From a virus (taxonomy: Duplodnaviria; Caudoviricetes), in the IMG/VR virus record IMGVR_UViG_3300037721_000080, positions 1-38,683 of that record: a stretch of 38,683 nt of DNA; one strand, 5' to 3'. The notes beneath the pieces were generated by a model. It was given only the letters and a program-made list of their open reading frames with translations. It was not told the origin of the DNA and ran no database searches. Both the position numbers and the translations under genes were made by a program. Shown piece after piece: positions 608 through 38,120 of this stretch. Each line of letters opens with the position of its first letter. Within the stretch, counting starts at the first letter, position 1.

Positions 608-1822
608 TTACAGCGCGACGCGCCCGTTGTATCCGGGAGCAACGCAACCAAGTTGCGCGTAGTACTTCGCGCGGACTTCGACACCGTCGTTGGTCGTCTG
701 ACGAAGCATCTTAAGACCATCGCTGTTCTCAAAGCGGGGAACCTCGCCAAGCGAGTAGAGCTTCCACGTGTCCTTCTGGAGGATCCAGCCGGTATTCGAG
801 GGGCAGTAGGCGTCCGCGAGGACGTCGACTACGTTCGTTCCACAGGTGATCTGAATCGAGCGGAATCCGAACTCGCCGTCGTTCGACTGAACCTCACCGT
901 ACATCACGCGGCTTCCAAGCGATGCCTGGAGGTTCGCGAATTGAGCGAAGTTACAAACGAACAGGTCCGGCTTCGCGCCTTCGCGCGCAACACGGGCCAC
1001 CGAGCGGAGGATCTTCTCTTCGATCGCGATGCCAGCGGGCGCCACGCTGGAGGGAATGCGGATACCACCGAGGCGGTTCTTGCTGACCGAGCGGTCAACG
1101 CCGAAGAACGGCGTAGAGCTGGGAGCCGATGCCGGAACCCATCCACCGAGACCGGTGACCTTACCGTTAAGGTCGCCGGCAACCTGGATGAAGTCGCCAA
1201 CGATGAGGCCCGTGACCTGAGTCGTAACCCAGTTGGCGTCGCTGGTGAGCGTTCCGAGGTCATAGTCGATACCCGTAACCGTCGCCGTACCCGTGCGGGG
1301 CGTAGCAGCGTCGGTCGCGGAGAACGACAGTTCCATGTCAATGTCAAAATTGACAATCTGCTCAATATCAGCGAGGGTCAGCGTCACAGTCGAGAGAGCC
1401 CCGACGGTGCCGATCGAACCAGAACCCGTCCCATAAAGGGCCGTGCTGAGGGAACGAACGAGCTGCTTAAACATCCCGTCGATTTCCGTAACGCGGGCCG
1501 AAACGAACGCAGCCTTATCGCCTTCGGAGGCTTCAAGGGCCTCGTTTTCGATAGTGACCACGCCGTAGTCCTTCGCGCGGGTGAGCACGAAGTCTTCGGT
1601 GCGAGCGGGGGCAGCGGCGGCTTGGGCATTCGCAATCGAAGTGCCGCGGCCAGCCGGGGTGGAGAAGAGAATCGGAATCGGAAGATTCTTGCCCTTCATC
1701 GAGGTCATGCGCGGCATGACGGCGAGCAAAGTGCTCTCGCCGTACTGCATCAGCTTGACCTTCATGTCATCGTAGTAAACTTTAAGTACGCCGTCGAGCG
1801 ACGTAGTCGTAGCGGAAGTCAT
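608..1822 (-). CDS. Major capsid protein
   Basis: 404 aa; follows portal and scaffold genes in P22-like order; AGGAG RBS; size and composition typical of HK97-fold coat proteins. Confidence 0.85.
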   Translation of the reverse strand: MTSATTTSLDGVLKVYYDDMKVKLMQYGESTLLAVMPRMTSMKGKNLPIPILFSTPAGRGTSIANAQAAAAPARTEDFVLTRAKDYGVVTIENEALEASEGDKAAFVSARVTEIDGMFKQLVRSLSTALYGTGSGSIGTVGALSTVTLTLADIEQIVNFDIDMELSFSATDAATPRTGTATVTGIDYDLGTLTSDANWVTTQVTGLIVGDFIQVAGDLNGKVTGLGGWVPASAPSSTPFFGVDRSVSKNRLGGIRIPSSVAPAGIAIEEKILRSVARVAREGAKPDLFVCNFAQFANLQASLGSRVMYGEVQSNDGEFGFRSIQITCGTNVVDVLADAYCPSNTGWILQKDTWKLYSLGEVPRFENSDGLKMLRQTTNDGVEVRAKYYAQLGCVAPGYNGRVAL

Positions 1823-1845: not shown

Positions 1846-2940
1846 TTATTTCCAAGATCCCACTGCACGCGCCAGACGTTCGTCGTCATTTCGCGGAGTG
1901 CTTTCGCTCTTAGTGGTGCGCGTTGCGGTCATCTTGTTGGTTATGGTTTTAGCCGGTTTAGGCTCTGTCTTCTGACCCTCAGACTTGGGAGCACTCTCTG
2001 ATTTAGGAGTCTCGGCTTCTGCCGGTTTCCCGGCTTGTTCCTCCTGCCATTTCTGGAAGGTCAGCAGCTTTTCAAGATAAACTGCAATCTCTTCATAGCC
2101 GACTTGATTACTGCCGGCGGCCTTGCGGGCCACGGCGATAATGTCGGCGTCTGCTTCTTTCGAAAGAAGGGGGTACTTGTCCCCGTCTTTGACGTGTTTG
2201 AGGAAACCCGCGTTTTCCGCATGAACAGCTTGCTCGTACTTCGAGCGGTTCTCTTCCTCTTGCTTGGCTTTCTCAGCGGCTTCTTTCTTATCCGCTTCGG
2301 CCTTCTCCATCGCTTCAAGCTTTTGCTTGAGCTTCTCAGTCTCGCTGTTGCTACGTGCAATCTGGTCTTCGGGGGCTTGCACGCCTCCGTTGAGCCGACG
2401 TCGCGTAAGACGGTCGTAGAACGCGTCCTTGGTTGTTCCGCGCTTCTTAGCGACGGTCTCCAGGAACTGCTCCTCGTCCTCTTCGAACAGCTTGACGAGC
2501 GCATCAATGTCCGCCTGGCGCTTCCCCAGGTCGGTCATGCGCGACTTGCTCACCGTCTCGTGCTCTGCACGGGCGGCTTCCAGCTTCGCGAGCTCGTCCT
2601 TAAGACGGGCCTCTTCGCGCTGTACGGCCTTGCGCTGGCGCTCTAACTTAGCGAAACCACTCGATAATTTCTCTTGAGTGACCGGCTCGGCCTTTACAGG
2701 GGGGCTTAGTTCCGTAGGCTTCTTAACCTCCGGTTTAGCTTCTTCCTCTGCCTCTTCCGGCTCCGGTTCGGGGCGTTTCGGCTTAGGCGGTGCTTTCTTG
2801 GTCATCCCTCTCGGTGAGGGCTTGTCCATCTTAGCGATCGTCTGTTCAATCTCGGTCGCTAACGGCGTCTTCCCCGGAAGTTCCGGTTTCGACATCTCGG
2901 GTAGGGGGCTAGGCGCTCCCTGATTTTCATCAGCGCTCAT
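1846..2940 (-). CDS. Capsid scaffolding protein
   Basis: 364 aa, highly charged E/K-rich coiled coil with disordered ends and a short basic C-terminal helix (DDERLARAVGSWK); lies between portal and capsid. Confidence 0.75.
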   Translation of the reverse strand: MSADENQGAPSPLPEMSKPELPGKTPLATEIEQTIAKMDKPSPRGMTKKAPPKPKRPEPEPEEAEEEAKPEVKKPTELSPPVKAEPVTQEKLSSGFAKLERQRKAVQREEARLKDELAKLEAARAEHETVSKSRMTDLGKRQADIDALVKLFEEDEEQFLETVAKKRGTTKDAFYDRLTRRRLNGGVQAPEDQIARSNSETEKLKQKLEAMEKAEADKKEAAEKAKQEEENRSKYEQAVHAENAGFLKHVKDGDKYPLLSKEADADIIAVARKAAGSNQVGYEEIAVYLEKLLTFQKWQEEQAGKPAEAETPKSESAPKSEGQKTEPKPAKTITNKMTATRTTKSESTPRNDDERLARAVGSWK

Positions 2941-3038
2941 TAAATAAGCTACTCTTTACTATCATCAGCCGATAGTTAAGCTCACGTTACTAACGTGTAT
3001 TGGTAAGAAACCGGACTTAACGCGCCGGTAGCGTAAAA

Positions 3039-4949
3039 TCACATCGGTACGCCAGGCGGCGCACCAGGAGGAGCAGCGCCAGGCTGCATCTCCATAGGCA
3101 TCTCCATACCGGGCGGGGGAGCGTTAGGATCCATTCCCGGGGGAGGAGGCGGAGGTTGCATAGCCATTTCGCCTTCTACGACAATCTCCAGGAGCTCACG
3201 TAGCATATCAAGCCTCTCTTCTGGGCAATGGTTGCGCTCAGCGTTCAACAGGAGCGCCACGGCGAGGGGCTTGACCTGCTGCATGTCGACGTACGGATCT
3301 GGCGTCCAGGGGATACCCTTCTTTACGATGTCCGTAAGCCGGCGCATGATCGCTTTCTTAGAAGCAATCACCGGATTCATCTCGGCAAATTCGCGGGTGT
3401 CCGGAAATTCACAGAGCATCATGCCCTCATCCTTGGTTACCCAACCAATGCCGACCCACTCTTGGACTATCGCCATCTTCTCGCCGGGGTTGCTCGGAAG
3501 AGCGTTCGTCGGATATGCGCGGATATCGAATTCCGACTTCTTGATATTGATATCTTTGAAATCAAGCTCCTCGTACCCACCTTCGACGTTAAATCGAACC
3601 TTGTAGCCCTTGATCCCCCTGGCGCACTCAATCATCTTAGCGGCCGCGTCCAGCGCAAACTGCTCATAGCTATCCGCAATAATCCGAAGCCGCTTGCTAT
3701 GGTTCTGGAGTATCGTCCTCAGAGCGCGGCCGCTGACGTCCCCACCAACCGTCTGACCTTGCGCGGTCATCTGGCTAATACCGGTAATCTCGTAAGCCTT
3801 GCGCTCCAACTGCCAAAGATGCTCGAAAATCTGCGGTGACACGGGCGTCTCCGCCACCGTGCTAGGCGGCGTACCCGTGTATTCGATGATATCACCGTCA
3901 TTCGCGCGCATGTGAGCCGGATTCACCTTGCTGCCACGCTCAATGAACACGCGCGTGATACCGAGCTTGGCGAAAGCACGCTGAATCTTGAGTAGGAGAC
4001 GGTTAATCTCCTTCTGGACGCCGGCTAGTTGCTCCGTGAGACCCTTACCCCAGAAGCCGAACGGGCGTTTGAGCCAGCGGAGGAACACGAACGGGTGGTC
4101 CTCACACTCTTCGTTCAACAGTTCAATGTCATCATCGCCAACGGCGATAATGTGGCGCCCGTCTTTGGCGTCGGGACCGCTTGGCATGTGCCAGGCCTCA
4201 ACGACCTGAAGCAGATCTGACGTCGTGTCGTACATGAGCGGGCCGCGGCCGTTGGATAGGCCGCTACTGGTGCACGTCGAGAGGCGAGCGCGGAGCTCCT
4301 TACCCTTTTCAGTGTCATCAGTGTACTCCGCGATCAATACGCTACGGTCAATCCACTTCGTTTGATAGAAACACGTCGGCTTCCCGTACATACCGTCGGC
4401 TTGGTCGACCAACAGTTCCCACGGGAACACTCTGTCCAGCGCAACTTCTTTACCGGACTCATACACTTTAAGGATGCCGGTCCCAGCCCATTCGGCGTCG
4501 AGGAAAATCTCCGGCGCAAGCTCGTAGAAGCCAGTCTTATAGAACTGACCCTCGCAGAACTTGTCTAGCTTCTCTGCGGCTTCGCGCTTGTCCCAATCAG
4601 CACCGTTCGTTGTGAACGTCGCCTTGGGTTTATTCTGGCAAATCTCCGCCTGTGCGGCGGAACAGCAGTTTTCGATAACGTTGAGACCAACGGTCTCGTT
4701 ACCGGCGATCTGCACCGAGATAGCCGGACGGCCCGCACTGAACGGTGATAGGCCAGCGATTGCCGTCCCCCCATGCATGCGTGCCCAGTGGAGGAAAGAC
4801 TCGTAGAGATAAGCCTGGCGCGATGCAATCTGCCTAGCCGTGGCCATCATGTCCGCGGCTTGGTTCTTCTCGTCAGAGGACCACCAAGAAAAGTTGACCG
4901 GTTTATCGCCGGCTGGCGTATGGCGTTCGTTAGCTGGAATGCGTCTCAT
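3039..4949 (-). CDS. Portal protein
   Basis: 636 aa downstream of TerL; segments such as FWGKGLTEQLAGVQKEINRL and AYEITGISQMTAQG typical of P22/podovirus-type portals; Pro/Met-rich C-terminal tail. Confidence 0.85.
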   Translation of the reverse strand: MRRIPANERHTPAGDKPVNFSWWSSDEKNQAADMMATARQIASRQAYLYESFLHWARMHGGTAIAGLSPFSAGRPAISVQIAGNETVGLNVIENCCSAAQAEICQNKPKATFTTNGADWDKREAAEKLDKFCEGQFYKTGFYELAPEIFLDAEWAGTGILKVYESGKEVALDRVFPWELLVDQADGMYGKPTCFYQTKWIDRSVLIAEYTDDTEKGKELRARLSTCTSSGLSNGRGPLMYDTTSDLLQVVEAWHMPSGPDAKDGRHIIAVGDDDIELLNEECEDHPFVFLRWLKRPFGFWGKGLTEQLAGVQKEINRLLLKIQRAFAKLGITRVFIERGSKVNPAHMRANDGDIIEYTGTPPSTVAETPVSPQIFEHLWQLERKAYEITGISQMTAQGQTVGGDVSGRALRTILQNHSKRLRIIADSYEQFALDAAAKMIECARGIKGYKVRFNVEGGYEELDFKDINIKKSEFDIRAYPTNALPSNPGEKMAIVQEWVGIGWVTKDEGMMLCEFPDTREFAEMNPVIASKKAIMRRLTDIVKKGIPWTPDPYVDMQQVKPLAVALLLNAERNHCPEERLDMLRELLEIVVEGEMAMQPPPPPPGMDPNAPPPGMEMPMEMQPGAAPPGAPPGVPM

Positions 4950-5137
4950 AAGCCAACGTGCGCGTACGTCACGTCCTCATCTTCTTGGGCCTCGCGCTCC
5001 TCGCGCCGTGCAAGAGGTTCATCTTTGAATTCAGGTAAACTGGGACCCAGTTGGAGCTCTAGCTCCGGAGTCTTATATAGATGAACATTATGCTCTCGCA
5101 ACAGCGCGAGGAGTGAGGCTAGTTCTTGAAGCTGCAA
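4946..5137 (-). CDS. Hypothetical protein
   Basis: 63 aa, tightly packed between neighbours in the late operon; start codon uncertain. Confidence 0.6.
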   Translation of the reverse strand: MQLQELASLLALLREHNVHLYKTPELELQLGPSLPEFKDEPLARREEREAQEDEDVTYAHVGL

Positions 5138-5139
5138 TA

Positions 5140-5646
5140 TCAGGCTTCTGCGAATTCGAGCACGACGCGCATATTCGGAATGGCTACGCCGTTTCCGGTG
5201 TGCGTCTTCGCGAGCGTGATCGTGAGATTTTGCGCAATGGCGACGCCGGCAAGGTTGCTATAGAGAGCGACCTGCGAGAGTGCCACCCAGCTCGTAGCAG
5301 CCGTGGTAATGGCCGTACCAATGGCCGTTTGTGACCCACCGCCGGCTTGCGGACGCGTACCGAGTTGGAGCGTCGTATAGTGCGACGCATCAAGCGTCAC
5401 GGCCGCGTCGGGGAGAATGTACGCACCGAAGAGAACGATTCCGCCGGTGTGATTCGGCGTAACCGTGAACAGAGCGCGCTCGATATCCGTGCTCGCAGCA
5501 GCGTCTACGGCGCAATAGCAAACGACATACTTTTTGCGGGCCTGGTTCCAGTCATCGGCCGAAATCGCCGGGGGAACAGCGCCAGAAGCCGTCGCGTGAG
5601 CGGCGTATTGACCTACCTGAATCGTCTTAATATTTCCGACTGACAT
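5140..5646 (-). CDS. Putative virion structural protein
   Basis: 168 aa, A/T/G-rich beta-type composition; GAGG RBS; head gene module. Confidence 0.55.
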   Translation of the reverse strand: MSVGNIKTIQVGQYAAHATASGAVPPAISADDWNQARKKYVVCYCAVDAAASTDIERALFTVTPNHTGGIVLFGAYILPDAAVTLDASHYTTLQLGTRPQAGGGSQTAIGTAITTAATSWVALSQVALYSNLAGVAIAQNLTITLAKTHTGNGVAIPNMRVVLEFAEA

Positions 5647-9362: not shown

Positions 9363-9625
9363 AGTTCCCCCAATGCCCGAGCGTTCTTCTTCTCCGCCCT
9401 GAGAGCACGACGTGCGTCGCGCTTAGCCAGTTGCTTCCGATGCTCGCGAGCCTCGCTGGCCACAACGCGGCGTTCGTGCCGGTTCAGACGGTTATGCACG
9501 TCCTCGAGGGACGGTTCCGTGTTGCCGTTTGCGAGCTCCGCTAGCTGGTGCCGAGCTATAATAGCTTGGCCCTTGGAGAGGGTAGGGAGTCGGAGCTTGC
9601 GGCGGATGAGGTCCTGGGAGGTCAC
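9359..9625 (-). CDS. Basic hypothetical protein
   Basis: 88 aa, R/K-rich; GTGA overlap with GroES. Confidence 0.55.
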   Translation of the reverse strand: MTSQDLIRRKLRLPTLSKGQAIIARHQLAELANGNTEPSLEDVHNRLNRHERRVVASEAREHRKQLAKRDARRALRAEKKNARALGEL

Positions 9626-10008
9626 GCAATCCCCACGATGCGCTTGTCGTCCTTCTTACCAGCCGGCTCGGCAATTCGCAGAGCAACGTCCTCCTCATCA
9701 AGGAGGCCAGCGATGTAATCGTCTTCTACGACGTATACGACTTCGCCGTTCAGTAAAAACGGCTGAACGAATGCGTTAGCGGTCAACTGAATGTAGTCGC
9801 CCGGCTTACAGTACGTCTCGCGAAACCCAGTTGGGGTCATTTTCCCCGGCCCAGCTGCAACGACCTTCGCACGCTTCGGGGTTTTCACCTCCGTTGCATC
9901 GGGTCCATTGCTAGACTTGTAGGTCTCGGGCATCAAAATGCCGCCCTTAGAGACGTTGGGAATGTCGACGGGAATGAATTGAACGAAGTTTCTAACAGGC
10001 TTAAACAT
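9622..10008 (-). CDS. groES: Co-chaperonin GroES (Cpn10) family protein
   Basis: FKPVRNFV...SKGGILMPE (mobile loop)...KVVAAGPGK...KPGDYI...NGEVVYVVEDDYIAGLL matches the Cpn10 pattern. Confidence 0.88.
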   Translation of the reverse strand: MFKPVRNFVQFIPVDIPNVSKGGILMPETYKSSNGPDATEVKTPKRAKVVAAGPGKMTPTGFRETYCKPGDYIQLTANAFVQPFLLNGEVVYVVEDDYIAGLLDEEDVALRIAEPAGKKDDKRIVGIA

Positions 10009-11881: not shown

Positions 11882-11921
11882 AGTACTTTACTTTCTGTCC
11901 GGGCCGACGTATCAATAGGGC
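11881..11921 (+). promoter_or_regulatory. Repeated phage promoter, copy 1 (leaderless)
   Basis: AGTAC-TTTACT(11887)-N17-TATCAA-N6-ATG(11922). Confidence 0.7.
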
Positions 11922-12125
11922 ATGGACTGCTCCCCCTCGTATCACACGGCGTTACGTACTCTCTGGCGCGTCGGCATTGACATTACGCACATTGGTGTCC
12001 AAGATGACGGTCGGGGGAACCGCTTGGAACTGTGCAACTGTAAAAAGTGCGATAGCACGCTGGCGAGGGAGATGAGGCGGAGTGAGATGCCGCCACCTCC
12101 GATGCCGATGGAGAGGGTCCGATGA
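11922..12125 (+). CDS. Small Cys-containing hypothetical protein
   Basis: 67 aa, LELCNCKKCDSTL; starts at the predicted +1. Confidence 0.6.
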   Translation: MDCSPSYHTALRTLWRVGIDITHIGVQDDGRGNRLELCNCKKCDSTLAREMRRSEMPPPPMPMERVR

Positions 12126-13537: not shown

Positions 13538-13580
13538 ATAAGTACTTTACTTATTCGGCGAAGTGACGTACTGTTTAGGT
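13538..13580 (+). promoter_or_regulatory. Repeated phage promoter, copy 2 (leaderless)
   Basis: ATAAGTAC-TTTACT(13546)-N17-TACTGT-N6-ATG(13581). Confidence 0.75.
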
Positions 13581-13748
13581 ATGAAGACGACGACAGAGAC
13601 GCTCCGCTGGACGATGAAAGACCTGACCAACGTTATCGTTGCCCAGGAAGAGATGGTTAAGGCTGGTTTCAACTGCCCCAAGCTCGCCACGTACTGGACT
13701 CAGTTTCTCGCCGTTGAGACGGAACTCAAGAACCGCGGTGCGCTGTGA
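13581..13748 (+). CDS. Hypothetical protein
   Basis: 55 aa from the leaderless ATG. Confidence 0.6.
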   Translation: MKTTTETLRWTMKDLTNVIVAQEEMVKAGFNCPKLATYWTQFLAVETELKNRGAL

Positions 13749-14008
13749 TTACGGACAGCGTGCAGACCGTCCTAGCCTGGGAAGCCGAGTGGGTGAAGAC
13801 CCGCGGACGGCTTTCCGTTGGCATGGCGAAAGCCGCCGCAAGGGGATGTGAGACCAGGCTGACCGATGTGTGGGCTGGTGTCATCGCCCGAGCGGTAGCG
13901 GCTGAGGGCGGCGCATGGGCGCAGCTGCAAAAGGAACAGATTGCGCAACGTCTGGAGCAGGATGCCGCAATGAAAGCAGCGTCTTCGCGTCACAGATTCG
14001 GATACTAG
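13745..14008 (+). CDS. Hypothetical protein
   Basis: 87 aa, GTGA overlap. Confidence 0.55.
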   Translation: MITDSVQTVLAWEAEWVKTRGRLSVGMAKAAARGCETRLTDVWAGVIARAVAAEGGAWAQLQKEQIAQRLEQDAAMKAASSRHRFGY

Positions 14009-14135
14009 CTTATTTTACGTTGTAACTGAACGCGGAATGCACGGTATGCCCAGCAATGGGAGAGCACGCCAGGAACCCTACAACATGACGCCGTGTAATG
14101 TGGGGACTTTTTCAGTTACAACGTTGAGTAAGCTA
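14006..14135 (+). ncRNA. Candidate structured non-coding RNA (long closing stem, internal hairpin, possible pseudoknot)
   Basis: Perfect 14-bp inverted repeat 14017-14030/14111-14124, extended by 14006-14015/14126-14135 with G-U pairs on the + strand; CCCA-GCAA-TGGG GNRA hairpin inside; intergenic. Confidence 0.55.
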
Positions 14136-14161
14136 CGAGCTGGCACCAAACTTTCCGACGG

Positions 14162-14204
14162 ATAAGTACTTTACTTTCTCTCCGCCGTGCCGTATTAAAT
14201 AGGC
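14162..14204 (+). promoter_or_regulatory. Repeated phage promoter, copy 3 (leaderless)
   Basis: ATAAGTAC-TTTACT(14170)-N17-TATTAA-N6-ATG(14205). Confidence 0.75.
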
Positions 14205-14300
14205 ATGAGTGACGAACGCAAAACAGTCCCGGCCCCGCCGATTCCGAGTTCGGAGCTGGCGCGCGAGTGGGAGCGTCGTCTCAAGGAGAGTGCCAAATGA
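14205..14300 (+). CDS. 31-aa peptide
   Basis: MSDERKTVPAPPIPSSELAREWERRLKESAK; starts at the predicted +1; ATGA-coupled to the next gene. Not in the ORF track. Confidence 0.55.
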   Translation: MSDERKTVPAPPIPSSELAREWERRLKESAK

Positions 14301-14455
14301 CCCGCGAATTGTTTGACATGGCGATTGCTGAGTTTGATTCCCGCGCTGAAATCGCGCTCCAGTCTGGCGACTTCGAGGCCGTAGAGGCTCTGTACATGGA
14401 AGCCGTCGCGGCGCTGGATGGTGAGGAGCCGACGGATGAAGAGGTGAGCCTGTGA
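14297..14455 (+). CDS. Small acidic protein
   Basis: 52 aa, AAGGAG RBS, very D/E-rich. Confidence 0.6.
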   Translation: MTRELFDMAIAEFDSRAEIALQSGDFEAVEALYMEAVAALDGEEPTDEEVSL

Positions 14456-14952
14456 AGTACCTAGCGCTCTGTGCTCTGCTGACTGCCGGCTGCGCCGGAC
14501 CCTCTGGCCCGTGGAACGTCGATGAAAGATTCTCCGAGGCCGAGCAGGCCGCCATCGCACAGGGTGCAGCAACCTGGCCTGTACCCATCGAGCTCCGCTT
14601 CGGACAGCATGTAAACGCCTTCCAGACGGACGCGCGGGTCATCGTCCGAGTGGACCGCGACGTGATGAACGTCGCCTATCCGGAGAGCCGGGGGCGCAAC
14701 GTACGCGCCGTTACCTTCGACCAGCAGAAGATCCTCCTAGAGCCGGACACGATGAACGCGCCGCTCTGGTGGACCGTCGCTCACGAGCTGGGTCACGGTA
14801 TGGGCATCGAAGACCACGTGAGCGACCCGGGGTCCGTGATGTATTCGACGCTGGACCTCACGGCCGTGCGCTGGTGTGTGACGGAGTACGACGCAAGCGC
14901 GTACCGAGCTGCTACGGGGCAGTGGATGGAGAGCACATGTGGTTCGCAATAG
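14452..14952 (+). CDS. Lipoprotein zinc metallopeptidase (metzincin-like)
   Basis: Lipobox MKYLALCALLTAGC; HELGHGMGIEDH; Met-turn SVMY; GAGG RBS. Confidence 0.8.
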   Translation: MKYLALCALLTAGCAGPSGPWNVDERFSEAEQAAIAQGAATWPVPIELRFGQHVNAFQTDARVIVRVDRDVMNVAYPESRGRNVRAVTFDQQKILLEPDTMNAPLWWTVAHELGHGMGIEDHVSDPGSVMYSTLDLTAVRWCVTEYDASAYRAATGQWMESTCGSQ

Positions 14953-16199: not shown

Positions 16200-16409
16200 T
16201 TAGAGGGCGAGGATGGCATTGCTGATAACGGCGGGTACGTAATTGTAGGTGCGGAGAACGTTGCTGGCGAAGACGATGGCGCCGAGGCGGCTTTTGCCAA
16301 GGTTGGCAATGGCGTAATTGTAGGCGCGTTTGGCGCGAAGGTTGAGGATGTCGCGGGGGCTGGCGTAGTTGTTTTTATCGCAGTTGGTTTTGATTGCGTC
16401 GTTGTTCAT
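16200..16409 (-). CDS. Hypothetical protein
   Basis: 69 aa; ATG at the predicted +1 of promoter copy 4. Confidence 0.55.
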   Translation of the reverse strand: MNNDAIKTNCDKNNYASPRDILNLRAKRAYNYAIANLGKSRLGAIVFASNVLRTYNYVPAVISNAILAL

Positions 16410-16452
16410 GCCCTTATACTACGGTACGCCTCCAAGAAAGTAAAGCACTTTA
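16410..16452 (-). promoter_or_regulatory. Repeated phage promoter, copy 4 (leaderless)
   Basis: Minus strand TAAAGTGC-TTTACT-N17-TAGTAT-N6-ATG(16409). Confidence 0.7.
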
Positions 16453-18030: not shown

Positions 18031-18073
18031 ACCAGAAGCATACGACCGTCGACGGAGAAAGTAAAGTACTTAT
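18031..18073 (-). promoter_or_regulatory. Repeated phage promoter, copy 5 (short leader)
   Basis: Minus strand ATAAGTAC-TTTACT-N17-TATGCT, then a ~16-nt leader with GAGG before ATG 18014. Confidence 0.75.
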
Positions 18074-18835: not shown

Positions 18836-19431
18836 GCCGCTTCCTCTTCCCAGCTAGTGCTATTCCACGATCTCCACATTCGCACCCTAAGCAGGTCCGC
18901 CTGCTTCCGAATCCGACGCAACAGCGAGGCGCGCCACTCGGTCGGAACGGTGCGCTGTGCCAGCTCGAGGTTAGCCAGGCGCTCGTCGGGGCGTAGGCCT
19001 TCGACGGGGGTCTGGGAGCGTAGGTAGGTCTGACCGCTATTCGTATGAGCGTAGAAACACATGAGCCGACCTGGGTTGGCCTGGTGTGCCCACCTACAGC
19101 CGCTGTCTCCATACCACAACTCTAGAAGTCTAGCGCCGACGGCATCATTACGTTCAACCGCCAGCATGCGGCGCGACACGCGCCCGAATCGATCCAGAAG
19201 CTCGGGGTCCATCTCATATGCGGGATGGCTGTCTTCACGGGGCACAAAGATATATTTCCACTTCTCGGCACCATGTAGAACAGGGATTAGCTTATTGCTT
19301 GGATTGCGCGAGAATATCTGCGCACGCTCTAACGTACGTCCAAAGTTACTATGGAAGAAGGTTGACGTCCCCGCACCCAAATACCAGGAAATTTCATTCT
19401 CGTCTCGTAAACTGATTCTCAAGATGCCCAC
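18832..19431 (-). CDS. Hypothetical protein
   Basis: 199 aa, operon-coupled. Confidence 0.6.
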   Translation of the reverse strand: MGILRISLRDENEISWYLGAGTSTFFHSNFGRTLERAQIFSRNPSNKLIPVLHGAEKWKYIFVPREDSHPAYEMDPELLDRFGRVSRRMLAVERNDAVGARLLELWYGDSGCRWAHQANPGRLMCFYAHTNSGQTYLRSQTPVEGLRPDERLANLELAQRTVPTEWRASLLRRIRKQADLLRVRMWRSWNSTSWEEEAA

Positions 19432-19895
19432 CGTTCGTGTCTAACTAATCGTCCAACGTGTTGCCTACGTATCCCGAAGTCCGCCGCAATTGTACGGTGG
19501 TTCTCACCGTCGGCAGCGCGACGTCGAATCTCCTCAACCTTCTTAAGTGTGAGCTTAGAAGAGGGATGGTCTTCGCCCCTTACAACGCGGTGGCGGCCTT
19601 TCGCCATCTTATCGGCAGTGTTCTCTTGGTTCGTACCAAGAAATAAGTGTTGAACGTTACAACACTCTGGCGTGTCGCACTTGTGTAGTACACACATACC
19701 ATCGGGTATGGGTCCGTGTTCAAACGTCCACGCGGCGCGATGAGCCTTTACCTGCTTATGCTCGCCGTCATGAATGAGCCCATAACCGTTCTTGTCACCA
19801 GCCGCTGTCCAGAGCAAGCAGCCTGTCATGGGCTCAGGACACAGTTTCGATTCAAACCGCTCCTTAAACGGTGTCTTGGGACGGCTACCTCTCAT
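19419..19895 (-). CDS. HNH homing endonuclease with C-terminal HTH
   Basis: GCLLWT...KAHRAAW...VLHKCDTPECCNVQHLFLGTNQEN (HNH_3 type); C-terminal KLT...IAADFGI helix-turn-helix. Confidence 0.9.
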   Translation of the reverse strand: MRGSRPKTPFKERFESKLCPEPMTGCLLWTAAGDKNGYGLIHDGEHKQVKAHRAAWTFEHGPIPDGMCVLHKCDTPECCNVQHLFLGTNQENTADKMAKGRHRVVRGEDHPSSKLTLKKVEEIRRRAADGENHRTIAADFGIRRQHVGRLVRHERWAS

Positions 19896-26070: not shown

Positions 26071-27498
26071 TCACGGAGAGGTGCCGAAGACGTCTTTGTA
26101 CCTGCTGTAAGCGTAGCCTTTTTTGTAGTTTCTTGCGTCACCGTAAGACCGCCACAGTGCGAGCTCGCGTTGTTTACGAGCCTCGGGTAGCTCACTCAAC
26201 CATGACTTAGGTACGTGAGTCCCGAAAGTACTGTAGTAACTAGATACAACGAAGTCAATGGAATATCCTCGATTTAAGCTGAGTTCCAACAGACGAAAGA
26301 ATTCGTCGAGCTTCGCGGACTCCGGCGTATTCTCATGATCGAAAACGAGCTTGAGAGAATCGGAGTAAATTACCGGGATTTTCCGCTCTTTTCGAGGGAA
26401 CGTAAAACCACATCCTTCGCACGTCGCACGTCCAGCTAACTGCGTTAGCCCACACATAACGCACACGGCGAGGGGCGGTAGCTTCGTTAGGTCGAAGGAC
26501 TTACCGTCTAGCGTGAATTCGCGGTCAATGTGTGGGAGACCGTGCTGCAATGACGAGCCGACCAGGTCGATTACAATCGCTCGCGTCTTACCCGGTGCTG
26601 CGCGTAGGACGCGGCCACACTTCTGCATGTAACCGCCTACGAAGTTGCACGCGGACGCTAAGATGCATACGCTGGCCTCGGGAACATTCACGCCTTCCGT
26701 TAGAATGGCGTCCGAGGTCAGGATACGTAGCTCGCCAGACTTGAGGCGAGCGATGGCGGATAGCCTTTCGCGGCGCCCTAGCTTCGAATGGACAGCCGCT
26801 GCGGGGATACCAGCGGTAGTCATGCGACGCGCCACATCCTCGGCCGTATCGATTCCTCGCACGAAGCAGAACCCACGTTCGCCTTGCCCGTAGGTCTGGT
26901 ACGCGTCCACCGGGTCGCAGGCCAGGTCAGAACCGCGATGCTCCGGTGGTTGAAAGACCATCGCATGGACGATCTTCTTTGCCCGTAGGAGCTCGCTGTA
27001 TTTCGCCGCTACGATGAGTCGGTCGAACATCTTGAGCGGTTTGTCGTCGGACCTGCACGGCGTAGCCGACGTGCCTACAATGAAGGCATCCGGGTAGAAC
27101 TCTAGGAGCCGCTGGAACGTCTGAGCTGGCAGGTGCTGAACTTCGTCATAAAGTACTACATCTGCTTCGGGTAGAGGCGTAGTCTTACGTACGGCACCTT
27201 GTATGCTGATGATTTGCAGTGGAGCGTAGGGGCTGCGATTGAAGCCGGGGGCGATGATGCCTACTGGGAACTCGCCTAGGGCTTTCGCGCGCTCCGCAAA
27301 GTCCGCCATGATCTCGGACAAGTGCACTACGAATAAGACGCGCTTACCGTTACGGATACACGCGGCTGCGATCATAAGCAGAATGACCGACTTGCCAGCA
27401 CCGGTGGGGGCTTGGACTATTACGCGTTTAATGCCTTCGTTAAAGGCTGCGCGGACGTCGTCTACTGCGCGCGTTTGGTAATCGTACGGGGAGATCAC
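26071..27498 (-). CDS. Superfamily 2 DEAD/DEAH-type helicase with Zn ribbon
   Basis: Q motif YQ, APTGAGKS, DEVQH, SATP, LTEGVNVP, QKCGRVLR; CVMC...CEGC. Confidence 0.92.
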   Translation of the reverse strand: MISPYDYQTRAVDDVRAAFNEGIKRVIVQAPTGAGKSVILLMIAAACIRNGKRVLFVVHLSEIMADFAERAKALGEFPVGIIAPGFNRSPYAPLQIISIQGAVRKTTPLPEADVVLYDEVQHLPAQTFQRLLEFYPDAFIVGTSATPCRSDDKPLKMFDRLIVAAKYSELLRAKKIVHAMVFQPPEHRGSDLACDPVDAYQTYGQGERGFCFVRGIDTAEDVARRMTTAGIPAAAVHSKLGRRERLSAIARLKSGELRILTSDAILTEGVNVPEASVCILASACNFVGGYMQKCGRVLRAAPGKTRAIVIDLVGSSLQHGLPHIDREFTLDGKSFDLTKLPPLAVCVMCGLTQLAGRATCEGCGFTFPRKERKIPVIYSDSLKLVFDHENTPESAKLDEFFRLLELSLNRGYSIDFVVSSYYSTFGTHVPKSWLSELPEARKQRELALWRSYGDARNYKKGYAYSRYKDVFGTSP

Positions 27499-27983
27499 GC
27501 GACACGCTTTAGATAGGCAATTGCCGACTCTAGAACCTTTGGATCATCGTTCGCGTAACCGAGCAGTAAATTACACGTCATACATAGGAGTCCGCGGACG
27601 CGACCAGATGTGTGGCAGTGGTCCACGTTTAGATCGGCGTCGTTTATGCAAATTGCACAGCGCTTCTGTTGCGCCGTTTCGAGAAGTTCCTTCTCGGCTA
27701 GGGTAAGAGTGTAACCCTTACTTTTTCCGTTATGTTTTAAATTACACTCAGCGCAGAACGATTTATTCACGGTCCGCGCATCGCAACCGTTGATGCACAT
27801 GCCAGCCGCCTGGCGCGCCTTACGTCTGACCTGTGTCGATTCGAGACACCTTTTACAGTTAACGAATTCACTGTCACGTGGATTGCCGCATTGACATAGA
27901 CCGAGGGACCTACGTTCAGCGCGGAGTCGTTTGGAATAGTTGTGGCTGTAGGCGCGCCGCGCCTCGGGATCTTTAAGCGGCAT
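27495..27983 (-). CDS. Endonuclease VII-family (His-Me) nuclease
   Basis: CAIC...VDHCHTSGRVRGLLCMTCNLLLG; N-terminal Cys repeats. Confidence 0.88.
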   Translation of the reverse strand: MPLKDPEARRAYSHNYSKRLRAERRSLGLCQCGNPRDSEFVNCKRCLESTQVRRKARQAAGMCINGCDARTVNKSFCAECNLKHNGKSKGYTLTLAEKELLETAQQKRCAICINDADLNVDHCHTSGRVRGLLCMTCNLLLGYANDDPKVLESAIAYLKRVA

Positions 27984-30487: not shown

Positions 30488-31258
30488 TTAGTAGCCGGGG
30501 AAGAGACGACGCTGGCCTTTACGCTCTAGAATTGCCTGGAGCTTGGCCTCTGCACACATCTTCGCTTTAACCCTCACCTTAGCCCAGGGTTTCCAATCGT
30601 GGTCCGGGAAGGCAGCTTCTAAGAATCGCTCGGTAGCAGGCCAGCATGCAGATTCCCATAGCCACGCGCGATCGAACACGCCAGTAAAATCACTTACTGG
30701 AATGACTTTCATAGGTGATACACTACCATCTATAACGACGTACGCAAGCTTCCCGTCCGTAGATTCGCCACGGTCGCGAAGTATTTTAGCCACCGTAACG
30801 GCCGGACTCGTGACGTCGTATTCGTCCACGTCCTTACTTAGAGCCTCTGCCAGCGATATGAGTTCAAGCGGTAACTCGTCGTGTAAGATACGATTCCGGT
30901 GCTCCGTAATTACAATGTGGTAGTCTTCGGGTTCGAAATTACCCGTGACGAATAGGTCCACTACGGCCTTCTGTAGGTTTGCAGCGAGCTTACACACGTC
31001 GCCGCGCATGTACTCTAGACCCTTGATAGCCGGTTTACCGGAGCCAGCGAACCGGCCGGCGTAGCGCTTCTTAGCCGTGAACACAACGAACTCGAGCTGC
31101 TTGTCGGTATCCAGCTTGACGCGGCTGTTCGTGCACCCGTACGCGGCGAGTAGCTTCGGGTAAATCTCTGTATTACACTTGTCTACGAACGCCCGGAATT
31201 CCTCCTTCGTAGCACCAACGATGAAACAGGAGTCAGTGTCGGAATAAACAGGTTTCAT
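30488..31258 (-). CDS. Family B DNA polymerase, C-terminal part (motif C to thumb)
   Basis: Begins MKPVYSDTDS; AKKRYAG; IKGLEYMRGD. Confidence 0.88.
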   Translation of the reverse strand: MKPVYSDTDSCFIVGATKEEFRAFVDKCNTEIYPKLLAAYGCTNSRVKLDTDKQLEFVVFTAKKRYAGRFAGSGKPAIKGLEYMRGDVCKLAANLQKAVVDLFVTGNFEPEDYHIVITEHRNRILHDELPLELISLAEALSKDVDEYDVTSPAVTVAKILRDRGESTDGKLAYVVIDGSVSPMKVIPVSDFTGVFDRAWLWESACWPATERFLEAAFPDHDWKPWAKVRVKAKMCAEAKLQAILERKGQRRLFPGY

Positions 31259-32703
31259 GCCGCCTCTGCCGCCGCGAGCGTCTGCTTGATTAGGAACACG
31301 CCGGTCTGAGTAACGCTCTCCGCGATGTCTCGGTCATAGAACCGGCTGTACTTGCTCCCCACGCACCCGTAGAAGCCGTTCGCAGCGACCTTGAGCGCCG
31401 TACTCATCCGATCTGCTTCCTTCCACTCAACCGTTCCAGGTGGGAGAGACGCTGCTTTTTTCTTCCACTCGCTGCGCATGTCTAGAAGCTTCTCCAGTGC
31501 CATCGGGAGCATACCCTTCGGGCTATTGGCAAACGTCAAGCCAGTGGTCGGAGCCACGCAACCAGGCTTCCCCTTGGTCTCCGGCGACATGTTCCACGTT
31601 ATGAAGATAGACGGGTATAGCGCCGCGAAGTCGGCTACGTGAACATCCTTAATGATTCCAGTTAGTTGGGGGTCCATAACGAAAGCACCAGGGTACTTGT
31701 CGCGTGTAGGGAAGTAGCTCGGTTTCGTGGGGAAGCGATACCCACGCTCGGCACCCATACGCAGCATGATTCCGTCAACCAGCTCGGTAGGCTTAATGCC
31801 GTGCGTATCGAGAAACCCGTTACACACGTTCGTAATGGTCTGGTAGAGCTCAATAAACCCGCGCTTCTGTTCAAGCTCTACGAGGATTTCGGTGTCCCTA
31901 AGGCAATAGTCGGCCATCTTCTGGCGCTTGGCTCCACCGGCCTCCCAATACTCCCAGCAAAATTTGCTATCGAAGTCGTGCTTACCCTCACCTAGGACCA
32001 TGCGTGCTACGTGGTCCAGTCGATAGCTCTGCTTTTCCTCACCAGAGGAAGCGGCGGTGTTAGCGCGCTTGAATAATTGCATAAAATCGAGCCAGAGCCA
32101 TTGCTGCATGTAGCGCTCCAACGCTCGCTGGTCGGGCGCTAGACGGCGCATACGGGCACGCAACAGGGGCGCGTCGAACCCTTCGCCGGGGGTCGTAATC
32201 CACTGACCGTTTTTGAATTCTCGGTTGTCCCACGAACTCCCGAGATTCCAACCGGACACTGCATCGTACGGCTCTAGATCGGCCATCAGCTCGCGAAGCA
32301 ACAATCGTTCGTCGTGGTCCGTATCGCCCTTGAGCAGATTGACCTTACGAAAGCCGTCGTTATCGGCTAGCGCATAACAGAGGATGCGCATGTCGGACAT
32401 TCTGCTGAACGGCACGCGAGAATCCGACTCAAGGTCCAATTGGCAGATTCGCGGCGGTTGGATCTGAATGTCACTCGCGTCGGAGATGATACGCCGCGGA
32501 GGCATCACGTCGGCTTCCAGCATGCCGGGATTAGCCTGAGCGTACTGCTTGCGGTCAGCGTAGCGCTTGAATGTGATGCGCTCTCCGGCGGCTGTAAACG
32601 CCTCAAATGAGGCCTTGCGTGTCTCCGTTAGTCGCTCGCCTTGCGGGGAGCGGGAGAGAAGGTAGACGTTCGAGAAATCGTGGTAGCAATTGACGAGTTT
32701 CAA
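31255..32703 (-). CDS. Family B DNA polymerase, N-terminal part (3'-5' exonuclease, motifs A and B)
   Basis: ExoI DLESD, ExoII GWN...FDAP, ExoIII YCLRD, motif A DFAALYPS, motif B KVAANGFYG; no DTDS. Confidence 0.9.
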   Translation of the reverse strand: MKLVNCYHDFSNVYLLSRSPQGERLTETRKASFEAFTAAGERITFKRYADRKQYAQANPGMLEADVMPPRRIISDASDIQIQPPRICQLDLESDSRVPFSRMSDMRILCYALADNDGFRKVNLLKGDTDHDERLLLRELMADLEPYDAVSGWNLGSSWDNREFKNGQWITTPGEGFDAPLLRARMRRLAPDQRALERYMQQWLWLDFMQLFKRANTAASSGEEKQSYRLDHVARMVLGEGKHDFDSKFCWEYWEAGGAKRQKMADYCLRDTEILVELEQKRGFIELYQTITNVCNGFLDTHGIKPTELVDGIMLRMGAERGYRFPTKPSYFPTRDKYPGAFVMDPQLTGIIKDVHVADFAALYPSIFITWNMSPETKGKPGCVAPTTGLTFANSPKGMLPMALEKLLDMRSEWKKKAASLPPGTVEWKEADRMSTALKVAANGFYGCVGSKYSRFYDRDIAESVTQTGVFLIKQTLAAAEAA

Positions 32704-33398
32704 AGGGGAACTCCCGTGGAGATCGGAGCACCCGCGATATCAATCGCTGAAAGAAGACGCGTAAACTCGCTCGCGGAGAGCTCGCCCTTGGCACGATTAA
32801 CCCATCGACAGCAGAGGACTATATTGCCAACGGCATACCCCTTAGCCGAGTCGACTCTATCGAGAGAAGGGAACGTGGGGAACCAGGGCTCGGGTGAATA
32901 CTCAAATATAGCGTTCGTGTAATAACACCGGCCATCTTGTATTGTATGCCGGAACATAATGTCATCCGCGGTGATTGCAAAGTCGATCTCGCGGGCCTTT
33001 GCGCTTTCTCGCGACATTTGAAATAAGCGCTTCCACCACTGCTCCGATTTCCGGCGCTTTATACCGGCAGCCGCACTAATGCGGATACGGTCAATGTTTT
33101 CGGCATACCATTTACGTCCGCGGACACCGTTACATTTACGACAACCATCCGGTCTACCGTCTCGGAAGTTCCAAAATTCCTCTGTCATGTCCTGAGGCCC
33201 GCAGACAGAACAGTTCTTCTTACCGTCGCGGTACAGGCACTTACACGTTCGGTCCTTCCACTTCTTCAGTGCCCATCCGGTCAAAATGCGGGGGGTTCCG
33301 CACTCACATTCACATCGCCATTTAGACGGCCTTCTGTTCAGACACTCTAGGACGGTGAGAGGCCCGACCTTGAATCCGGTACGATCGATGAACTTCAC
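32700..33398 (-). CDS. Free-standing HNH-type homing endonuclease
   Basis: GRCYYT...PSLDRVDSAKGYAVGNIVLCCRWVNRAK; N-terminal WRCECECG domain. Confidence 0.8.
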   Translation of the reverse strand: MKFIDRTGFKVGPLTVLECLNRRPSKWRCECECGTPRILTGWALKKWKDRTCKCLYRDGKKNCSVCGPQDMTEEFWNFRDGRPDGCRKCNGVRGRKWYAENIDRIRISAAAGIKRRKSEQWWKRLFQMSRESAKAREIDFAITADDIMFRHTIQDGRCYYTNAIFEYSPEPWFPTFPSLDRVDSAKGYAVGNIVLCCRWVNRAKGELSASEFTRLLSAIDIAGAPISTGVPL

Positions 33399-37553: not shown

Positions 37554-38120
37554 TTAAAAGGCTGGTTTACTTACCAGATCAATCCGTTTTAATAGCTCCT
37601 GGAATTCTTGCGATGAAAAATCGTTTTTCGCATAGTTGACCCAGAGACAGCTAATAACGACATTGGCTTTCGTGTAGCCTAGTTTCGAGTCGACTCTGTC
37701 AAGTGACGGACCCAGTGGATTCTTGGGCTTTCTCACGGTATCGATTAGAGTGCCGGTGTAATAGCATCTGCCAGCCTGCGAGGACATTAATTCCGTCAAG
37801 AATGCAATATCGAGGTCGCAGGGTAGACCGGTTTCACGACTACGCTTTTTGGCTCGATTTAGAAGTCGCCGCCGCCAATCTGTGTAGTCTCTACGAGTCT
37901 TCTTTTCATGCGACCGCGAGTGCGTTCTGTTGTATTTCCTGTGGATTTCGAGAGATTTATCGTGGTTGTTAGCGCGCCATTTCTTCGAATTTTCGCAAGT
38001 ACATATCTTACAATAGTACCCTAAACCGTCGAGGCTTTTGGCTTTGTACCAAAATTCCAGTGTCGATAACTTCGCTTGTTTGCAAAGTTTGCACTGTTTA
38101 TGTGTAGCTACGTCTAACAC
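37554..38120 (-). CDS. HNH-type homing endonuclease (paralogue of 32700-33398)
   Basis: GRCYYTG...PSLDRVDSKLGYTKANVVISCLWVNYAK; N-terminal CKLC...CKIC; visibly AT-richer than the flanks. Confidence 0.8.
   Translation of the reverse strand: MLDVATHKQCKLCKQAKLSTLEFWYKAKSLDGLGYYCKICTCENSKKWRANNHDKSLEIHRKYNRTHSRSHEKKTRRDYTDWRRRLLNRAKKRSRETGLPCDLDIAFLTELMSSQAGRCYYTGTLIDTVRKPKNPLGPSLDRVDSKLGYTKANVVISCLWVNYAKNDFSSQEFQELLKRIDLVSKPAF

Follow-up and report, generated by a model that had tools for sequence, protein, structure and literature searches.

The intergenic stretch at positions 14006–14135 of a 38.7-kb virus record (the window, i.e., the whole stretch of DNA analysed, 38,683 nt) raised the question whether a long inverted repeat enclosing several smaller helices marks a structured RNA and, if so, to which family such an RNA belongs and what it might do. 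The window carries genes for capsid, portal, terminase, GroES, helicases, integrase and polymerase; its terminase had one distant relative among the cultured-phage records (33%), and ARAGORN detected no tRNA in it. The candidate RNA sits among small plus-strand ORFs without known family, and stops interrupt five of the six frames in 13990–14150, the remaining open frame being on the plus strand, where no gene was called. The leaderless promoter-like repeat upstream of it proved to be real, with three strict matches in the window against 0.12 expected. The repeat consists of TTTACT, 17 nt and a TAnnnT-like element, with 6 nt between its end and the start codon, and its copies (11882–11924, 13541–13583 and 14165–14207 on the plus strand, 16399–16450 and near 18065 on the minus strand) are predicted to drive leaderless early transcripts converging on the 12–18 kb region. 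The RNA is probably carried at the 3' end of one such unit, in the sense of its neighbours. The features of this unit and of the RNA, named as in the text below, are the following.

13541–13583, plus strand: promoter-like repeat with putative promoter activity, running to the ATG of the predicted leaderless transcript
13581–13748 and 13745–14008, plus strand: two small upstream ORFs of no family, matching only themselves and predicted to belong to the same unit as the RNA
14006–14030, plus strand: 5' arm of the outer closing stem (P0); its first 3 nt (14006–14008) are the stop codon of the ORF 13745–14008
14032–14034, plus strand: 5' strand of helix A, pairing with 14067–14069; weak in this copy (3 bp), 3–7 bp in the family
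14038–14045, plus strand: invariant U followed by the 5' strand of helix B, which has 7 bp starting at 14039, the last of them an invariant G-C and an invariant U-G
14046–14048, plus strand: invariant junction strand AUG, the predicted scissile region, with a putative cut after 14046 under a hammerhead-like reading
14049–14060, plus strand: hairpin C, with an invariant closing C-G, a covarying second pair and a variable loop
14061–14066, plus strand: invariant junction strand AGAGCA
14067–14069, plus strand: 3' strand of helix A, the first pseudoknot, crossing B
14076–14082, plus strand: 5' strand of helix D, the second pseudoknot, crossing B
14085–14089, plus strand: near-invariant junction strand AUGAC (UCGAC in variant L459)
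14090–14098, plus strand: 3' strand of helix B and the conserved A14098, an A in 14 of 15 lineages
14099–14105, plus strand: 3' strand of helix D, pairing with 14076–14082
14111–14135, plus strand: 3' arm of P0, pairing with 14006–14030
14165–14207, plus strand: next copy of the promoter-like repeat, beginning the following unit

Several other features of the window were recorded beside these. A phage GroES-like co-chaperonin (9622–10008, minus strand) lies beside the terminase block and, judged by eye, the contig of the homologue L012 seemingly encodes one too, beside RuvC. A DNA polymerase in two ORFs and four endonuclease VII/HNH genes (30488–32703, minus strand, and 27495–27983, 32700–33398, 37554–38120 and 19419–19895) form a combination for which a split gene or homing elements are possible. 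The ORF 14452–14952 (plus strand) gave a small matrixin-like (M10) metallopeptidase match of 25.7 bits, just under the curated cut-off, covering stretch 86–137 of a protein with a lipoprotein-like start.

In the outer stem P0 of the window copy, the 14-bp perfect arms reported earlier were located at 14017–14030/14111–14124, and the full 25 positions comprised 22 Watson-Crick pairs, two G-U pairs and one U-U mismatch, so that the claim of exclusively G-U deviations in the outer part held for two of the three and not for the third. The energy of this stem was −31 kcal/mol. Folding of the plus strand was far more stable than expected (z −5.46; 0/200 shuffles as stable), with a smaller effect on the minus strand (z −2.20; 8/200 shuffles as stable), and when the window was simulated 200 times with a Markov model, four of the simulated sequences contained any inverted repeat of at least 14 bp within 200 nt. 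Since a 151-nt contig from a second study (X3) spans 13981–14131 and is identical throughout, the long stem is not an assembly artefact.

Homologues were sought with patterns taken from the interior of the element. A 17-nt exact scan of viral contigs produced two loci: L001 had 24 nt in common with the window and a helix B different in sequence yet complementary, and L002, with 17 nt in common, was excluded as lacking helix B. A gapped pattern made from three common interior strands retrieved 116 loci (34 viral, 62 metagenome and 20 GTDB), to which a membership filter of five further pairs in B (B≥5) and three in C (C≥3) was applied. It was passed by 28 of the 116 loci against 0.12 expected by chance (7/34 viral, 21/62 metagenome and 0/20 GTDB), and the 88 others were excluded, including L034 and L038, which had B and no C. 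The family is real; the filter divided the pattern loci cleanly, 28 passing on B and C and 88 failing. The window and the 28 matches represent 20 distinct core sequences, and a relaxed scan added the variant L459, making 21, which fall in 15 lineages of phage-like DNA; the lineages were defined by common flanks, and the variable parts of their representatives were 50% alike at the median and 68% at the maximum. The identified neighbour genes were of phage type, although not all individual metagenome contigs are proven phage. The AT-rich L214, without a model match, was excluded, and L097, L279 and L587 were also dropped from the family. The covariance model alone gave no separation (30.8 bits for L459 vs up to 27.4 bits for pattern-selected non-members), so that the membership of L459 rests on its four helices and its intergenic place.

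The motif was present as a single copy per record in all eight member records searched and in the window (61 bits, the next score being 10.9). BLASTN against cultured phages gave no match for the window and only chance matches of 21–24 nt for three homologues, and an exact pattern with the window's own B and D strands had zero viral matches. A model search of 10 single cellular genomes returned two weak matches only (21–23 bits, no core), and in two phylum samples none of 151 and none of 151 genomes had a match, with 30 candidates scored per genome.

The interior motif is about 75 nt long, with the strand order A5, U, B5, AUG, hairpin C, AGAGCA, Y, A3, D5, AUGAC, B3, A, D3. The hairpin at 14049–14060 and the helices 14038–45/14090–97 and 14076–82/14099–105 of the preliminary description were found where it had placed them; helix A is a third helix absent from that reading. 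Among the 20 aligned sequences, all 180 of 180 cells counted for helix B and for two aligned pairs from hairpin C were paired, 46 of them changed on both sides; none of 500 shuffles reached the same and slid registers gave at most about 47–48%, a test that is partly circular, as the members were chosen on B and C. RNAalifold recovered helix B as well. The helix has 7 bp in all members, with one invariant U ahead of it, and starts with a U-G pair in 15/15 lineages, imposed by the pattern for L459 only. A 7-bp helix with a single base before it is the classic geometry of an H-type knot, with which AUG, AGAGCA and AUGAC would meet at a single junction.

Helices A and D played no part in the selection of members, although both were spotted by eye in the same sequences before testing. 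In swap tests helix D (4–9 bp) formed 6.47 bp with its own partner and 3.81 with swapped ones (energy −12.4 vs −6.5), and helix A (3–7 bp) 4.67 and 2.97 bp (−7.4 vs −4.3); none of 100,000 permutations was as good in either case, while a wrong-pair control was equalled by 66,543 of 100,000. In the window copy alone D was strong (0/28 swapped partners as good) and A weak (17/28 as good). As A and D each cross B, the predicted fold of the family, derived from the alignments, is a double pseudoknot of four covarying helices, A, B, C and D. The pseudoknot is thereby favoured over the two alternative folds that had been left open, since both crossing helices are conserved with covariation, which was found in all four helices across 15 lineages. 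The earlier description as a novel structured ncRNA with a pseudoknot was sound and indeed understated, there being a family, two pseudoknots, a near-invariant core and no Rfam match. The GNRA loop pointed out in hairpin C is not essential, as it was read by eye in only 8 of 15 lineages. G-U pairs are kept on one strand, in 5 of 20 sequences at one pair and as the invariant U-G at another.

The closing stem behaves differently from the interior. L012 has a P0-type stem of 15 bp, unrelated in sequence to that of the window; in L040, L085 and L094 it measures 9–10 bp, and in most other lineages it is at chance level, so that stems of at least 9 bp occur in 5/15 lineages. The family-wide trend is modest (69 of 50,000 permutations as good, and 485 of 50,000 without the window and L012). 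The 25-bp closing stem is a local and not a family feature, and the interior is the real finding.

Within the interior, a core of about 20 nt (GUAUG, AGAGCA and AUGAC) hardly varies while its surroundings do, within the limits of pattern searches: the core letters were largely fixed by the patterns, and each relaxation was tested by only 5–7 viral members. With AGAGCA freed (52/64 parts, 120 loci), six loci had full B, i.e., five known members and one without C; with the 5' half freed (61/64 parts, 120 loci) there were seven, i.e., six known members and one without C, and neither relaxation yielded a structured match with an alternative sequence. The 3' half freed (39/64 parts, 120 loci) gave five loci with B and C, four known and one new with UCGAC, and the ends of B and C freed (19/64 parts, 120 loci) gave one known member and a doubtful one that was dropped. 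The family may be larger and looser than collected, as variants differing in several strands at once would escape the patterns. The invariant bases can also pair otherwise, CA with UG in the alignment fold and AUG with CAY by eye.

The motif is intergenic and mostly in sense orientation, without any neighbour gene in common, in phages of 36–67% GC. It lies between DnaB and an RNA ligase in L012, after tRNA-Thr and before the terminase small subunit in L015, behind recT in L033 and after the portal gene in L459, followed there by a terminator and a promoter; in the L030 group it fills a 114-nt spacer between tRNA-Arg and tRNA-Gly within an array of 10 tRNAs, in L024 a sigma70-type promoter is located 45 nt upstream, and in L051/L086 a hairpin and a promoter are downstream. 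An RNA ligase adjoins the motif in 1/15 lineages only, and the other downstream neighbours are the terminase small subunit, tRNA-Gly, a deaminase and proteins without assigned function. The distance to a preceding ORF is 8–36 nt in the window, L012, L033, L086, L088 and L609. In the L050 group the motif takes the form of a cassette of ~95–165 nt, flanked on both sides by a repeated hairpin, and its neighbours change.

Some further elements were observed around the homologues. Arrays of a 29–36 nt hairpin repeat separate exchangeable cassettes, one of them the motif, in L050, L056, L069, L090, L096 and L099. A second short conserved element, without an Rfam match, occurs near the motif in 3/15 lineages (L024 at +178, L044/L054 at +110, L033 at +610); its 23 identical bases include a 5-bp hairpin whose loop is rich in purines. 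In L095 direct repeats flank the motif: 41-nt copies lie at −381 and −56 relative to it, and a related one follows immediately downstream. In L044 the motif is followed by a long hairpin-rich non-coding stretch (1230–1480, minus strand) with a single chance match in Rfam at E≤10; a hatchet-like reading of it had no Rfam support. L611 (G004) carries 10 tRNAs in an array at 1886–5388, and two of them have a TAT anticodon.

Of the explanations considered for these results, chance resemblance produced by the search patterns deserves practically no credence. The core letters are indeed pattern-fixed and pattern-selected non-members score up to about 27 bits; it is refuted at the level of the pattern split, 28 loci with B and C against 88 without, and of the swap tests passed by A and D. 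An element acting as DNA, such as a MITE-like insertion, a cruciform or a single-stranded DNA signal, would suit the 25-nt terminal inverted repeat of the window copy with TA at both ends, yet is highly improbable in view of the single copy, of arms wholly different among homologues and absent in most, of the G-U pairs kept on one strand and of the much better folding of the plus strand. A MITE in particular was rejected on the single copy and the unrelated arms. As a candidate target-site duplication, the window copy has only the TA belonging to the palindrome itself. We consider it unlikely that the motif is a cis-acting element, either a knot blocking exonucleases or marking transcript ends or a riboswitch-like switch. 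In several lineages it lies directly downstream of a stop codon or closes a unit at the 3' end, which would agree with this, as would the window helix D, which with a U-run forms a terminator-like hairpin (−14.3 kcal/mol) competing with helix B, and the nested fold (−23.6), which in a pseudoknot-free model outscores B+C or C+D (about −14). Against it, a U-run directly follows D in 1/21 loci, the terminator-like alternative being confined to the window; there is no downstream gene family in common, the positions including 5' ends, 3' ends, mid-operon sites and a tRNA spacer; and 20 fixed bases are not obviously needed for a purely mechanical block. A riboswitch context was rejected, as the motif is in no 5' UTR of a common gene class and its downstream neighbours differ. 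An SD-like site was seen near the 3' end of the motif in L094 and L100.

Quite possible, on the other hand, is a stable small RNA released from phage transcripts, whose invariant pocket would bind a small molecule, a conserved host protein or an RNA and which would act as a decoy or sponge in early infection. Its release could proceed through RNase III in the window, through tRNA processing in arrays of the L030 type and from an own promoter in L024. In favor of such an RNA are the 25-bp (window) and 15-bp (L012) closing stems with the weaker family trend (485/50,000 without both), the filling of the tRNA-Arg/tRNA-Gly spacer, the L024 promoter, the cassette-like shuffling between repeated hairpins in six loci and the place among small early ORFs under repeated promoters in the window. 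It is opposed by the lack of a common neighbour and of a long closing stem in 10/15 lineages, and one would expect a protein target to drift between phages ranging from 36 to 67% GC, in contrast to the invariant core. The RNase III-released small RNA suggested at the outset may fit the window copy and L012; long closing stems occur in just 5 of 15 lineages. Its proposed role as an antitoxin mimic found no backing: ToxI-like type III antitoxins are tandem pseudoknot repeats beside a toxin gene, and such a system was rejected here, since the motif is a single unit without tandem repeats and no toxin family was found among 68 neighbour proteins scanned.

Self-cleavage is the explanation that we tentatively prefer: the core may act as the catalytic centre of small self-cleaving ribozymes that form a new class, with the cut predicted in GUA-UG near 14046. 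The process would build on the helices A, B, C and D, covarying in 15 lineages with A and D crossing B, and on GUAUG, AGAGCA and AUGAC, which within the limits of the pattern searches hardly vary. The RNA would be transcribed in the same direction as its neighbours and, in the window, form the 3' end of the leaderless early unit; the invariant strands would meet at one junction for the chemistry, following the 5'-to-3' type III hammerhead order around a re-wired core; and the cut would end or process phage transcripts or tRNA precursors. In the window copy, the 25-bp stem would hold the cleavage products together unless RNase III also cuts. Ribozyme candidates have been picked by size, pseudoknots and strong conservation (PMC10085705, PMC5737381), and self-cleavage is favored because the size, knots and conservation of the motif agree with these published criteria, because its contexts resemble those of prophage hammerheads (PMC3088659), and because its strands are in type III hammerhead order with seven core matches and a swapped 3-8 pair. 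Counting against cleavage, 10 of 10 non-hammerhead candidates of one published screen did not cleave (PMC10085705); the likeness to the hammerhead was noticed post hoc, as one of many families considered, and breaks down at U4, A14 and A15.1, in stem II and in the spacing that follows H17; and there is no known ribozyme nearby, a single copy per record and an RNA ligase in 1/15 lineages. A stable released RNA would agree at least equally well with the closing stems, the place in a tRNA spacer and the cassette-like behaviour, and the ribozyme is placed only slightly ahead of it.

The motif apparently represents an undescribed RNA family of phage-like DNA, absent from Rfam 15 and with an unusually complex predicted fold. 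Literature searches, with subscription papers mostly outside their coverage, produced no description of it. Neither GAGAGCA nor AUGACGC occurred in a text search of the PMC10085705 supplement, and text searches of four supplementary files of PMC10690425 gave no match; the motif may be among the 10,006 unnamed automatic candidates of that study. Few classes of self-cleaving ribozymes occur in nature, and every new fold has brought new insight into RNA chemistry. With its two pseudoknots, its four covarying helices and its ~20 fixed bases, the ~75-nt RNA would be of value either as a new ribozyme class or as a new phage binding pocket; should it have neither role, it still stands as an RNA family with good support that Rfam 15 lacks.

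Comparison with known systems began with Rfam 15, in which the window had no match at the gathering threshold and 13950–14200 none at E≤10; this covariance-model search, suggested as a check in the preliminary description, pointed to no family, including twister, pistol, hatchet, twister-sister, glmS, riboswitches and group II domain 5. The 20 member loci scanned gave only tRNAs at gathering and, at E≤5, one weak snoRNA match over a copy (21 bits vs 36, E 3.5), which was judged to be chance; no known ribozyme was found in these loci or in the window. GUAUGC...GCAY resembles the upper part of group II domain 5, a likeness without an Rfam match. Retron msr-msd elements combine terminal inverted repeats with an adjacent reverse transcriptase; the repeats are present here, but a retron was rejected as no RT was found among the 62 window proteins or the scanned neighbours, which are on fragment records. 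The early regions of T7-type phages carry RNase III processing stems, likewise long, intergenic and at an early gene boundary, from which the present stem differs in closing a conserved folded domain and in being optional in the family. Orphan, 'biochemically sophisticated' motifs such as raiA, ROOL, GOLLD and RAGATH had no match to the motif in Rfam 15 at E up to 5–10, and ROOL and GOLLD are much larger than ~75 nt. Covarying pseudoknots, highly conserved bases and an association with phages or tRNAs are common to these orphans (PMC5737381) and to the motif.

HDV-like and theta ribozymes (PMC13635239, PMC10879173) resemble the motif in a double pseudoknot of similar size and in phage tRNA neighbourhoods, and its helices A, B and C follow the order of P1, P2 and P3. 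Membership was rejected on three grounds. The 2-bp P1.1 formed from loop 3 (PMC13635239) is absent, the second knot being a helix of 4–9 bp with the 3' tail, and the loop of hairpin C varies freely, unlike the loop 3 that makes P1.1. The catalytic C opening J4/2 (PMC10879173) is absent as well, the strand before B3 being AUGAC and in one case UCGAC. Finally, theta starts within 5 nt of the tRNA 3' end, and helix A starts 13 nt (L030) and 28 nt (L015) away.

The closest likeness is to the hammerhead. Prophage hammerheads are phage-intergenic with variable neighbours (PMC3088659), as is the motif. They often occur in sets, in contrast to the single copy in 8/8 member records and the window. As in type III (order S-C-G; PMC3088659 and PMC10085705), the motif starts and ends in the helix that precedes GUH; a hairpin follows, succeeded by a purine-rich strand of 7 nt and, ahead of the returning helix, a GA strand. 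Set against the published core (PMC3088659), the motif agrees position by position at G5, A6, A9, G12, A13, U16.1 and H17 and has G3-C8 in place of C3-G8, an agreement with a chance of 0.004–0.01 for one post hoc comparison among many families considered. Hammerhead membership was rejected because four defining features disagree. The strand C3 U4 G5 A6 N7 G8 A9 reads GAGAGCA and G12 A13 A14 A15.1 reads GACG, i.e., A replaces U4, C replaces A14 and G replaces A15.1, leaving neither CUGANGA nor GAAA; CUGAnGA was present in 3/26 loci, all three of one lineage, and elsewhere than in the core place. U16.1 H17 at the end of stem III corresponds to G14044 U14045 A14046, with the U pairing to G and not to A, and two extra bases follow H17. 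Stems I and II are not found beside the core: position 3 doubles as the closing pair of the hairpin, and the strands at the place of stem II pair with the 5' and 3' flanks, forming the two pseudoknots, and not with each other. No Rfam hammerhead match was obtained. There is nearly an even chance that the motif is a new class of small natural ribozyme, doubly pseudoknotted and either related to the hammerhead junction or convergent with it, with G3-C8, C14 and G15.1 in a re-wired core and traveling as an exchangeable phage cassette, or else, more boldly, a phage RNA that acts as a sponge for a host signalling molecule and is the first of its kind.
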